This document shows, piece by piece, positions 13,962-31,281 of a stretch of DNA of 64,000 nucleotides (position 1 is the first letter of the stretch; each line of letters starts with the position of its first letter). This DNA comes from an uncultured Dehalococcoidaceae bacterium (GTDB lineage: Bacteria > Chloroflexota > Dehalococcoidia > Dehalococcoidales > RBG-16-60-22), in assembly GCA_964462865.1 (NCBI GenBank), contig CAYWZO010000002.1, positions 820-64,819 on the forward strand, written 5' to 3'. The translations under genes and the position numbers were made by a program. The notes beneath the pieces were generated by a model. It was given only the letters and a program-made list of their open reading frames with translations. It ran no database searches and was not told where the DNA came from.

Positions 13962-15203
13962 TTACCGTCCTTCCTTGGTGGTGATATTATCACCCGTCAC
14001 CGTTTCCGGCATGTTCTCCGCCGCGGTATATAGTTCGAGCCGGCCCAGACTCAAAAAGGCCGGGTCATATATCGACAGACGGTAGTGTTTGAAGTCCGCT
14101 TCGAGATTAAGAGAAAAACTGACCCAATTATCGGTCAGGCTGTCCCGTTCAAGCTCCAGAGCAGCGAGCACCTGCCAGTCTTCCCCGTTGGCACTGGCTT
14201 CCAAGAAGGCCGTCGGCCCGTTCCAGAGCTGTCCGGTCAGCCCCGCCCGGGGTAAAATACGTAAAACCTGGACAGACGCCGGTTCCGGCAGTGAAAAGGC
14301 CACCCGGGCGGGCACTTCCTGGCGAGGCGTTTTCAGGTGCCAGAAGCCGCTGGTGCCCGCTTGAATAAGAACACGCCCGTCCATACCTTCCTGTAAAGCG
14401 CTGCTGACCTGTATTGTCGCGGGATCAATCACCAGCTTTTTCAGACCGACAATACTGTCAACCCCCGCGACGCCGGGCACCGACAGGGGAGCTTCCGGCA
14501 GCCTGATATTCTGCCCCTTTAGCGGCGGCGTGGCTGCCACGGTAGGAATGGCCGGCACCGCGGGACCGCTCCCCCTTAGCTGATACAGCTCCAGCCGGGC
14601 GATGGAGACAAAGTCCATATCTTCAATATATAGGCGGTAATGCTCGCGGGCTTCCGGCACCAGCACCAGGAAATCGAGCCAGACGTCGCCCGGCGGCCAG
14701 GGGACGATGCCCAGCGAGGCCGCGGACTCCCAGTCCCGCCCATCATCGCTGACCTGCAGCAACGCCTTGTAGCCGCGCCACATCAGGTGGCCATTTCCCC
14801 GGCGCGGGAGCAACCGCAGCAGGGCCACCGGCCGCGGTTGGTCCAGGGTTACCGCCACCCAGTCGACCTGGCTGCCCCGCTTGGGGACCCGGACATGCCA
14901 GAACCCATCCACCCCGGGCCGCAACAGCGCCGCCTGGTCCATCCCCGGCTGAAAAACGCTGCTGACCTCTATCCGTTCCGCCTGTAAGGGTATCTTTTCA
15001 TAGGGCGACAGGTCTATCCCGGTCACGCCCAGGACCGGCGCCACTCTGGCCGGCAGGTCATTTATCAGGGAGATGGTTGCTGTCTGGCTGCCATTTTTAT
15101 CAGCGCCGCAGCCTGATAGCAACGCTACCCCCGTTAACGCGAGGGCTATCAGAGCGCTGCACCGGGGCCAGAATCGATTGTTTAGTTTGTGTATATTTTT
15201 CAT
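13962..15203 (-). CDS. Lipoprotein with two tandem discoidin (F5/8 type C)-like domains
   Basis: Lipobox LLSGC. Each half carries GFWH(V/L)(R/K)xP, W(V/A)xV(T/A)L, LR(L/I)LPR, S(D/A)(D/N)GxDW, HYRL and ARLELY. Confidence 0.8.
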   Translation of the reverse strand: MKNIHKLNNRFWPRCSALIALALTGVALLSGCGADKNGSQTATISLINDLPARVAPVLGVTGIDLSPYEKIPLQAERIEVSSVFQPGMDQAALLRPGVDGFWHVRVPKRGSQVDWVAVTLDQPRPVALLRLLPRRGNGHLMWRGYKALLQVSDDGRDWESAASLGIVPWPPGDVWLDFLVLVPEAREHYRLYIEDMDFVSIARLELYQLRGSGPAVPAIPTVAATPPLKGQNIRLPEAPLSVPGVAGVDSIVGLKKLVIDPATIQVSSALQEGMDGRVLIQAGTSGFWHLKTPRQEVPARVAFSLPEPASVQVLRILPRAGLTGQLWNGPTAFLEASANGEDWQVLAALELERDSLTDNWVSFSLNLEADFKHYRLSIYDPAFLSLGRLELYTAAENMPETVTGDNITTKEGR

Positions 15204-15210
15204 GCCATCT

Positions 15211-30060: not shown

Positions 30061-30069
30061 ACCCGAGCG

Positions 30070-31281
30070 CTACGGCTGGGACGAGGTTACGTTATCCGTT
30101 CCGTAAACGCGTAGCCCGGCGAAGGACACGAACTCCGGGCTGGTGATGAGCAGACGGTAGTACTGGTGCGCCCCGGCATCCCCGGGCAGGAGGAACGTTA
30201 TCCAGTCGGAGCCGTTCAACTCACTATTTTCCAATTTCAGCCTGACCAGCCCGGTCCATGCCTCGCCGTCGGGGCTGGTCTGGAGTTCGGCGCCGTCGCC
30301 GCGCCACAGCTGACCGGGATTGTCCGGCCGCGGCTTGACGTCCAGCGCCGCAAGCTGCCGGGCCTCGCCCAGGTCGATTTTTACCCATTCCGACTTGGTT
30401 GCATGAGGCAGGACGACGTGCCAGAAGCCGGTCTCCTTCAGCAACGCCTCCGGACCGTAGTTCTGGAAAACGCTGGAAACCTCTAACATAGCTAACTGGA
30501 GCGTGATTTGCTGGTACATGGTCAGGTTGCCTGTGCCCTGGCTGCCGATTGCCACAGGCAGCGCCGGCTCTACCGGGGTCGGCACAGGAACCACCGAAGG
30601 CTCACCTTCTCCACTGCCTTCTTCGTAAACACGTAACCCGGCAATGGAAACAAACTCCGGACTGGTAATAAGCAAGCGATAATAACGGTAGGCCCCGGCA
30701 TCCCCGGGCAGGAGGAACGTTATCCAGTCGGAGCCGTTCAGTTTACTATTTTCCAGTTTCAGCCTGACCAGACCGGTCCATGCCCTGCCATCGGGGCTGG
30801 TCTGGAGTGCGGCGCCCTCACCGCGCCACAGCTGCTCGGGATTGTCCGGCCGCGGCTTGACGGCCAGCGCCTCAAGCTGGCGGGCCTCACCCAGGTCAAC
30901 CTTTAACCATTCCGTCGCTGCCTTCGGAGATAAAACAACATGCCAGAAGCTGGTCTCTTTCAGTAGCGCTTCAGGACCGAAGTTCTGGAGAACGCTGGAG
31001 ACTTCCACCATCGACACCTGGAGCTCGATTTGTTTATATTCCTTCAGGTTACCGGTGTTCTGACTGCCGGTGATAACCGGTATCAAAGGCTCCGGGACAG
31101 TGGGGGCTAACGTCAGCGGGGGCACCTGTGTTGTTGTTGGGGCTGGAGTTAAAGCCGGGGCCGTTGTTGACGGATACACCGTCGGCAGGCTTTCAACCCC
31201 GCTGACTTCCGCCTGGCCACAACTGGTACCAATCCCGGCGAGAGATAATATCAACAGTGAAACTAATATTACTTTAATCAT
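30070..31281 (-). CDS. Lipoprotein with Pro/Thr-rich linker and two nearly identical discoidin-like domains
   Basis: Lipobox IGTSC. Two 174-aa repeats each read EALLKET(S/G)FWHVVL...(V/I)DLGEARQL.AL.VKPRPDNP.QLWRG...LQTSPDG.AWTGLVRLKLENS.LNGSDWITFLLPGDAGA..YYRLLITSPEFVS.AGLRVY. Confidence 0.8.
   Translation of the reverse strand: MIKVILVSLLILSLAGIGTSCGQAEVSGVESLPTVYPSTTAPALTPAPTTTQVPPLTLAPTVPEPLIPVITGSQNTGNLKEYKQIELQVSMVEVSSVLQNFGPEALLKETSFWHVVLSPKAATEWLKVDLGEARQLEALAVKPRPDNPEQLWRGEGAALQTSPDGRAWTGLVRLKLENSKLNGSDWITFLLPGDAGAYRYYRLLITSPEFVSIAGLRVYEEGSGEGEPSVVPVPTPVEPALPVAIGSQGTGNLTMYQQITLQLAMLEVSSVFQNYGPEALLKETGFWHVVLPHATKSEWVKIDLGEARQLAALDVKPRPDNPGQLWRGDGAELQTSPDGEAWTGLVRLKLENSELNGSDWITFLLPGDAGAHQYYRLLITSPEFVSFAGLRVYGTDNVTSSQP
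30103..31100. repeat. Intragenic tandem duplication, period 522 nt (two domain-encoding copies)
   Basis: Copy 1 starts at 30103 and copy 2 at 30625. A 49-nt block is identical between copies (30170-30218 = 30692-30740), while flanking codons differ mostly at synonymous sites. Confidence 0.85.

Follow-up and report, generated by a model that had tools for sequence, protein, structure and literature searches.

The 64,000-nucleotide stretch analyzed here (the window), from contig CAYWZO010000002.1 of an uncultured Dehalococcoidaceae bacterium (assembly GCA_964462865.1), encodes ten copies of one discoidin-type domain distributed over six proteins of a single operon. Two of these proteins join the domain to a polytopic membrane domain that is predicted to have the GT-C glycosyltransferase fold. 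On balance, we favor the interpretation that the ten modules are extracytoplasmic carbohydrate binders, encoded by a Dehalococcoidales operon whose products synthesize an extensively modified sugar and, via a lipid carrier, attach or polymerize it on the outside of the membrane. All of the proteins in the window are annotated as "hypothetical protein" in source databases, and a search of the literature on discoidin domains or GT-C enzymes in Dehalococcoidia returned nothing relevant. A conserved housekeeping protein encoded in the window is 88% identical to a protein of a Dehalococcoidales MAG, and nearly all of the 80 best genome matches belong to Dehalococcoidia or other Chloroflexota, with one record labeled Thermodesulfobacteriota. 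Dehalococcoidia are abundant in the subsurface and in sediment, are mostly uncultured, and have an envelope chemistry that is largely unknown.

A hidden Markov model (HMM) of the domain, which spans ~138 amino acids (aa), was built from the copies themselves and used to scan all six reading frames of the entire window. It identified ten domains, all on the minus strand and none elsewhere, with independent E-values (i-E) of 3e-46 to 4e-61. They lie in six minus-strand open reading frames (ORFs), A413, B732, C380, D887, E1374 and F403, in the distribution 2+1+2+2+1+2, and all six ORFs (region 13962-31281) translate cleanly. A sequence-only reading of this DNA had arrived at the same count and the same distribution, and both are correct. 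The two copies of A413 occupy 14574..14996 (aa ~70-210; i-E 2e-55) and 14019..14438 (aa ~256-395; i-E 1.6e-55). The single copy of B732, at 15232..15639 (aa ~591-726; i-E 2.9e-46), is the most divergent of the ten, with YWQ replacing FWH and MPEG replacing MWDG. Copies 1 and 2 are found at 17967..18383 (i-E 7.8e-53) and 17463..17882 (i-E 4.2e-58) in C380, at 19099..19518 (i-E 6e-59) and 18583..19002 (i-E 4e-61) in D887, and at 30616..31032 (i-E 1.6e-52) and 30094..30510 (i-E 1e-52) in F403. The copy in E1374, at 25361..25792 (i-E 1.3e-47), holds DCLVDGDPFNFWHV, the F5/8-type-C opening that the sequence-only reading had quoted.

The identity of the ten copies as discoidin/F5-8-type-C domains, similar to carbohydrate-binding module (CBM) family 32, is secure. 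The Pfam profile PF00754 (F5_F8_type_C) matches all six proteins, A413 among them. Five of the six exceed the gathering cutoff of 28.2 bits, at 32.5-69 bits (32.5 bits for E1374), and B732 falls below it at 20.9 bits. In a profile search of the PDB, the best match was the C-terminal domain of a "putative chitobiase" from B. thetaiotaomicron (2kd7/3ggl; E 3e-8), and further matches included BF3579, galactose oxidase domain 1, CBM32s of GH84, GH89 and sialidases, neuropilin b domains and factor VIII (FVIII) C domains. In an AlphaFold2 (AF2) model of full-length D887, both C-terminal discoidin domains were predicted at a pLDDT of ~75-89. In a Foldseek search, the C-terminal half of this model, which holds both copies, matched the tandem CBM32s of ZmpB (7jnd, E 6e-12), FVIII C1C2 and neuropilin b1b2. 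The discoidin assignment originally made from motifs was thus upheld by Pfam, by the PDB profile matches and by the predicted fold.

Within this large family, the ten copies form one narrow and rare subfamily. An exhaustive HMMER search with the subfamily profile against 1.84 billion representative proteins yielded 2672 matches at E<=1e-3, 513 at E<=1e-10 and 64 at E<=1e-30. Exhaustive searching was used because a word-indexed search with a profile of these copies gave a single match, its E-values scaling with the 5.8 billion sequences searched. Eleven positions are invariant in all ten copies: S12, W33, R64, S82, W88, L94, W105, Y119, R120, F128 and S130. The loops are kept within each orthologous copy group and differ between groups. 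Three conserved loop residues, R64, W72 and F128, presumably match the spike loops of the FVIII C2 domain.

Membrane domains and the surrounding operon

Both D887 and B732 begin with a polytopic membrane domain of ~560-575 residues. In D887, this domain (aa 1-561; 19561..21243, minus strand) comprises ~13 transmembrane (TM) helices and a small outer domain. Its counterpart in B732 (aa 1-576; 15682..17409, minus strand) is 39% identical to it and matches our family profile A5 at 1e-254. A third protein, G630 (21240..23132, minus strand), is a remote paralog of these membrane domains (hhalign probability 97.5%, E 7e-12) and has no discoidin domain. None of the three membrane domains has a Pfam or NCBIfam match, and a sequence search of the PDB with either membrane-family profile, A4 or A5, produced no match at E<=10. 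Profile searches of the 5.8-billion-protein database and the PDB added nothing new, and it was fold comparison alone that identified the family. A fold search with full-length D887 was swamped by the discoidin domains and returned AftD only with poor geometry; a model of the membrane domain on its own was then built. For this model (pTM 0.68; pLDDT 80-92 over the helical core, residues 90-260), the top 28 Foldseek matches in the PDB were all GT-C enzymes at a probability of 1.00, among them STT3, ArnT (5f15; TM-scores 0.51/0.53), PglB, DPY19, AftA, AglB, ALG9/12, EmbB and PimE. By this predicted fold, D887 and its paralogs B732 and G630 can be assigned to the GT-C membrane glycosyltransferases, as a family that had not been annotated before. 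The sequence-only reading had counted enzymes among the carriers of the module; their identity, missing from that reading, is supplied here for D887 and B732. Candidates for an acidic catalytic residue in the first outer loop are E49, E50, D74 and D78, which do not vary within the D887/B732 family and are not strictly aligned in G630.

Given ~13 helices and a basic N-terminus, the discoidin modules at the C-termini of D887 and B732 are probably located outside the cell. PglB and ArnT, which are also GT-C enzymes, have an outward-facing C-terminus. The fold, together with a neighboring family 2 glycosyltransferase (GT2) and flippase, suggests that the sugar donor of the GT-C proteins is linked to polyprenyl phosphate.

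These genes belong to an operon of ~31 kb, a run of minus-strand ORFs, extending from 44048 down to 13427, in which neighbors overlap slightly or leave very short gaps. Its upstream half (31298..44048) consists of genes for sugar activation and modification, as judged by Pfam and NCBIfam. It encodes two B12-radical-SAM enzymes, a DegT aminotransferase, a protein designated X706, the GT2, the alpha and beta subunits of a thiamine pyrophosphate (TPP)-dependent E1 enzyme, two epimerase/dehydratases of the short-chain dehydrogenase/reductase (SDR) type and a cytidylyltransferase-PfkB fusion. This unusual set of enzymes suggests a branched and/or C-methylated amino sugar. In the fusion, the order of the two domains is reversed relative to the order in HldE. 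The GT2 (37598-38353, minus strand; PF00535) has as its best PDB match ArnC (9hwj; E 1.9e-7, aa 13-225), followed by dolichyl-phosphate mannose synthase (DPMS; 5mlz). Between G630 and E1374 lies a MOP-family flippase (Polysacc_synt; 23089..24489, minus strand), which scores 33.4 bits against PF01943 (cutoff 28.2) and is kept in two related loci (L001 and L002) and in a contig from JGI.

Two further membrane proteins share a layout with each other. X706 (706 aa; 35473-37593, minus strand), inside the operon, and a 491-aa protein just past the operon end (11948-13423, plus strand) each have a multi-TM N-terminal part and a soluble C-terminal part, and neither has a Pfam match. The 491-aa protein adjoins a DUF1616 gene (11058-11939, plus strand). 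Both proteins could be additional GT-C-like enzymes.

The remaining discoidin carriers fall into two kinds. A413 (13962..15203, minus strand), C380 (17445..18587, minus strand) and F403 are small proteins that consist of one N-terminal hydrophobic segment and two discoidin domains only. By eye, lipobox cysteines can be recognized in A413 (LLSG-C, the signal peptide ending LLSGC), in C380 (IIS-C, within MIISC) and in F403 (GTS-C, a poor lipobox), and from these N-termini all three are probable lipoproteins. The operon ends with a 188-aa ORF (13427-13993, minus strand), which overlaps the A413 ORF by 32 nt, contains two hydrophobic segments and matches no family.

The largest carrier, E1374 (24437..28561, minus strand), is a protein of 1374 aa that is anchored at its N-terminus by one TM segment (aa 11-42) and combines a weak CotH-like region, the discoidin domain and a C-terminal right-handed beta-helix. 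The Pfam score for the beta-helix is 21.1 bits, below the cutoff of 25.9, and reaches 36.0 bits in the ortholog P0072. E1374 had previously been labeled a CotH protein. This label is weak and found no support: the match to CotH (PF08757) is sub-threshold at 14.9 bits against a cutoff of 23.8 (18.8 bits in P0072), and neither phmmer nor a four-sequence profile found a CotH structure for E1374 in the PDB. Orthologs of E1374 carry from one to three or more discoidin copies. Upstream of E1374 in the operon are a DUF4956 membrane protein (28576-29244, minus strand; Pfam 4.5e-11) and a VTC-domain protein (29290-30060, minus strand; Pfam 1.4e-22), and the trio of an E1374-type protein, VTC and DUF4956 is also conserved in the JGI contig. 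An accessory set of CotH, polyphosphate polymerase and DUF4956 proteins adjoins Gram-positive pel loci (10.1101/768473). The placement of an outward-facing kinase-like protein next to a polyphosphate-polymerase-like pair is intriguing.

The spread of the module over several proteins of one operon, which the sequence-only reading had emphasized, is real and recurs in other loci. The D887 family is very rare, with eight proteins among 5.8 billion, all of them metagenomic, and no D887-family locus was found in 185,579 GTDB species-representative genomes. L001, L002 and the JGI contig keep the gene order of a G630-like protein, a D887-like protein with two copies and a C380-like protein with two copies. 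In L001 and L002, this order extends to a B732-like and an A413-like protein with one copy each, which the JGI contig lacks. The G630 counterparts (617-646 aa) are directly upstream of the D887 homologs, and the C380 counterparts (381-384 aa) follow directly after them in all three loci. The A413 counterparts are single-domain proteins of 199-212 aa. One related contig also keeps an E1374-like protein, DUF4956 and VTC, along with a 566-aa protein in which the module occurs three times.

More distant relatives show the same association between membrane domain and module. The membrane family is fused to the discoidin subfamily in eight other proteins (P0098, P0054, P0027, P0038, P0026, P0025, P0146 and P0010), and two other members of the discoidin subfamily carry signatures of YfhO, a GT-C protein. 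P0010 (2069 aa; locus L083, 10001-16210) has a GT-C-like membrane domain followed by nine tandem discoidin copies, so that modules that are dispersed over six proteins in the window are gathered there in one polypeptide. P0010 adjoins the same set of sugar-modification genes (L083, 1-9800) as is found in the upstream half of the operon.

Elsewhere in the window, and unrelated to the discoidin operon, a 1146-aa fusion (59465-62905, plus strand) combines a trehalose-synthase-like alpha-amylase domain with a maltokinase domain, and is of the TreS-Mak type as read from Pfam.

Carbohydrate binding and other possible roles

We propose a pathway in which the cytoplasmic SDR enzymes, the nucleotidyltransferase-kinase fusion, the DegT aminotransferase, the TPP-dependent E1 alpha and beta subunits and the two B12-radical-SAM enzymes would build the sugar. 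The ArnC/DPMS-like GT2 would place this sugar on polyprenyl phosphate, the MOP flippase would carry the loaded carrier across the membrane, and G630, D887 and B732 would transfer the sugar to a growing surface glycan or glycoprotein. Extracytoplasmic glycosylation by three components, namely a polyprenyl-phosphate sugar synthase, a flippase and a GT-C enzyme, has been described (PMC11127046). The outer C-terminal modules of D887 (two) and B732 (one) would keep the acceptor polymer close to the catalytic center. The modules on A413, C380, F403 and E1374 would tether these proteins to the same product, and synthesis, modification and retention of the product could in this manner be co-localized at the cell surface. 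By analogy with GT-C enzymes whose CBMs bind the acceptor glycan, such as the C-terminal CBM of GT136 ORF12 (PMC11127046) and those of AftD and EmbC (AftD preprint), the most likely role of the modules is that of CBMs for the acceptor or the product.

The sequence-only reading went further and suggested that all copies bind the same glycan. This is not shown, since the residues common to all copies are mostly part of the generic fold core and the loops differ between copy groups. Because loops are conserved within each copy type and different between types, recognition of different epitopes is favored over one identical ligand. The common target would be one complex glycan, of which the copy types probably recognize different epitopes or maturation states.

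Several points weigh against carbohydrate binding in the service of such a pathway. The residues that the copies share (W33, H34, R64, W72, W88, Y119, R120, F128 and S130) are largely fold-core positions and do not prove a common sugar site, and the loop analysis is based on small groups (2-11 sequences). The similarity of the GT2 to ArnC is weak (E 1.9e-7), generic GT2 enzymes score alike, and the protein is without a TM segment. The AF2 models are modest (mean pLDDT 63-65), with only nine sequences as input. Discoidin domains also bind lipids, as in factor V (FV) and FVIII, or proteins, as in neuropilin and the DDR receptors.

The last of these points leads to an alternative, which is that the modules mediate protein-protein or membrane-lipid adhesion, either assembling the six proteins into an envelope complex or anchoring a coat that resembles an S-layer. 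The fold matches include the lipid-binding C domains of FVIII and FV as well as the protein-binding neuropilin and DDR1, and three of the carriers, all small probable lipoproteins, lack a catalytic domain. Binding to specific protein partners would likewise fit loops that vary with copy type and are conserved among orthologs. Nevertheless, the nearest solved relatives of the modules are associated with glycans (the chitobiase C-terminal domain, galactose oxidase domain 1 and the CBM32s of GH84, GH89 and sialidases), the genomic context is wholly one of glycan biosynthesis, and beta-sandwich modules on GT-C enzymes serve acceptor glycans. We therefore consider adhesion an unlikely role for these modules.

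If the modules do bind carbohydrate, a more elaborate version of the same scheme can be entertained. The operon might encode an undescribed envelope-polymer machine of Dehalococcoidales, in which three GT-C enzymes of a new family act on one glycan and the ten modules serve as a "lectin scaffold" that passes, sorts and retains the polymer. VTC and DUF4956 might supply extracellular phosphate chemistry. Dehalococcoides, a relative of the host bacterium, lacks peptidoglycan and is wall-less. We offer this version as speculation, with a low probability of being right in full.

A third possibility is that the locus serves glycan degradation or foraging, with the lipoproteins capturing an external polysaccharide and the beta-helix protein functioning as a lyase or hydrolase. 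Glycoside hydrolases are the most frequent carriers of CBM32 modules, the beta-helix of E1374 is pectate-lyase-like, and lectin-bearing lipoproteins at the surface are reminiscent of proteins that capture glycans. The Pfam and NCBIfam searches, however, revealed none of the signatures of a utilization locus, whether of a glycoside hydrolase, a lyase family, a transporter or a regulator. The operon instead encodes nucleotide-sugar modification, a GT2, a MOP flippase and three predicted GT-C-fold transferases, and the modules are fused to the transferases themselves. A foraging role is improbable on these grounds, and clearly more so than adhesion.

Origin of the ten copies

The sequence-only reading stated that conservation among the copies reaches the nucleotide level, which raises the possibility that ongoing operon-wide gene conversion (concerted evolution) maintains their similarity. 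Conservation of this kind is not general. The pairwise aa identity of the copies is 23-48%, with the exception of the F403 pair at about 80-81%. Codon-aligned nucleotide identity across the 45 pairs is 41-55%, and third positions are only 30-50% identical. The two F403 copies (d1 and d2) again stand apart, with 81% nucleotide identity across the domain and 87% within a 291-nt stretch.

Two specific observations had been offered for nucleotide-level reuse. The segments 18868-18912 and 19384-19428 are indeed identical at 43 of 45 nt. The sequence GTGCCAGAAGCC, previously reported at three positions, occurs at five (14337, 17781, 18901, 19417 and 30418). This recurrence is real, because a 12-mer is expected to occur only ~0.008 times in 128 kb by our own arithmetic. 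GTGCCAGAAGCC is the reverse complement of GGC TTC TGG CAC, the codons for G-F-W-H, and its recurrence mirrors a conserved peptide written in preferred codons.

Gene conversion was examined with a GENECONV-style permutation test on silent sites, in which only codons for identical amino acids were considered and the Bonferroni threshold was 0.0011. A significant tract was found in one of the 45 pairs, the two copies of D887, which share 16 consecutive identical codons (permutation p=0.0002, background 0.42); in the other 44 pairs, silent sites were not clustered. The D887 tract (18868..18912, minus strand) encodes GFWHLKTPR[E/Q]ENPAW. In the closest D887 homolog, P0003, which is 77% identical, the corresponding two peptides differ at four positions. 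A short and recent intragenic conversion is therefore the apparent origin of the tract, as far as the sequences can tell. The test thus supported one short tract of likely conversion, and not conversion or nucleotide reuse across the operon.

Comparison with other genomes separates the two explanations further. Nine of the ten window copies find their nearest match in the positionally equivalent copy of another genome, always in a metagenomic protein, at 45-100% aa identity; outside the F403 pair, identity to other window copies is only 32-48%. For example, the first copies of D887 and P0003 are 80% identical, the first copies of A413 and P0017 are 86% identical, the copies of E1374 and P0072 are 55% identical, and the copy of B732 and its counterpart in L002 are 47% identical. 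The tenth, F403 d1, is 81% identical to its foreign counterpart, a tie with its own sister copy. That the copies are closer to foreign positional counterparts than to one another argues that the duplications predate the divergence of these lineages. The ten copies are, by these comparisons, ancient paralogs and not products of concerted evolution. The case for operon-wide conversion consists of the D887 tract with its run of synonymous codons, the 87% identity of the F403 copies over 291 nt and the F403-type repeats in other organisms, which resemble repeats of their own protein more than foreign ones. It fails on the absence of silent-site clustering in 44 of 45 pairs, on the low nucleotide and third-position identities, and on the fact that every copy in A413, B732, C380, D887 and E1374 is nearer to a positional counterpart elsewhere than to any window copy. 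General gene conversion is rejected on the ortholog/paralog comparison and the permutation test, and conversion as the force that maintains similarity across the operon is largely refuted and can be regarded as very improbable.

The F403-type proteins show a pattern of their own. In F403 (30094-31032) and in P0011, P0013 and P0018, the repeats within a protein are 68-83% identical and are more alike than repeats compared across organisms, and copy number in this type ranges from one to four in several organisms. Judged from the sequences, this pattern indicates lineage-specific recurrent tandem duplication or homogenization. The other eight window copies behave as stable positional orthologs.

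Comparison with known systems

The modules share their fold and Pfam family with known CBM32 and discoidin domains such as those of Clostridium perfringens ZmpB (CBM32-1/-2; 7jnd) and 2kd7/3ggl, and their tandem layout is that of ZmpB. With 2kd7 they have the core motifs DG..T/F-W-H, LPR, S.DG..W and RY.RL in common. Unlike known CBM32s, the operon subfamily adds an invariant Q-[LM]-W-x-G, D-W and F-x-S, and it is found on biosynthetic proteins predicted to be GT-C enzymes and on probable lipoproteins instead of on glycoside hydrolases. As ten diverged paralogs, the modules are a natural set for the study of how CBM32-type specificity diversifies.

The combination of a polytopic GT-C fold with one or more outer beta-sandwich modules is known from the mycobacterial enzymes AftD and EmbA/B/C and from GT136 ORF12 of Citrobacter youngae. 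In contrast to these, the membrane domain of the D887 family has no sequence similarity to Pfam families or to solved GT-C enzymes, and the operon modules are of the discoidin type and occur also on separate, non-enzymatic probable lipoproteins and on the CotH-like protein. This is a GT-C-fold family that sequence databases have missed, its members all being annotated as "hypothetical protein".

The three-component systems GtrABC, CsbB/GtcA/YfhO, ArnC/ArnT and that of C. youngae resemble the operon in having a GT2, for which ArnC and DPMS are the best solved relatives, a MOP-superfamily flippase and GT-C-fold transferases. The operon differs from them in encoding three predicted GT-C paralogs and not one, a long pathway for an unusual sugar and ten lectin-like modules. 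The accessory set adjacent to pel loci is similar in that VTC and DUF4956 adjoin a large, weakly CotH-like protein in an operon of the exopolysaccharide type. Here, however, the CotH signal of E1374 is sub-threshold, the protein has a discoidin module and a beta-helix in addition, and the operon is without pel genes.

No new principle is required by these findings, since CBMs on GT-C enzymes are already known. A single module subfamily marks most of the pathway proteins that are predicted to face outward, which makes it a practical handle in searches for other parts of the pathway and for its relatives. What is new relative to the systems described so far is an unannotated family, predicted to be GT-C enzymes, that bears probable CBMs, together with a single CBM32-like subfamily that is spread unusually widely across the proteins of its pathway, in an uncultured lineage of Dehalococcoidales.

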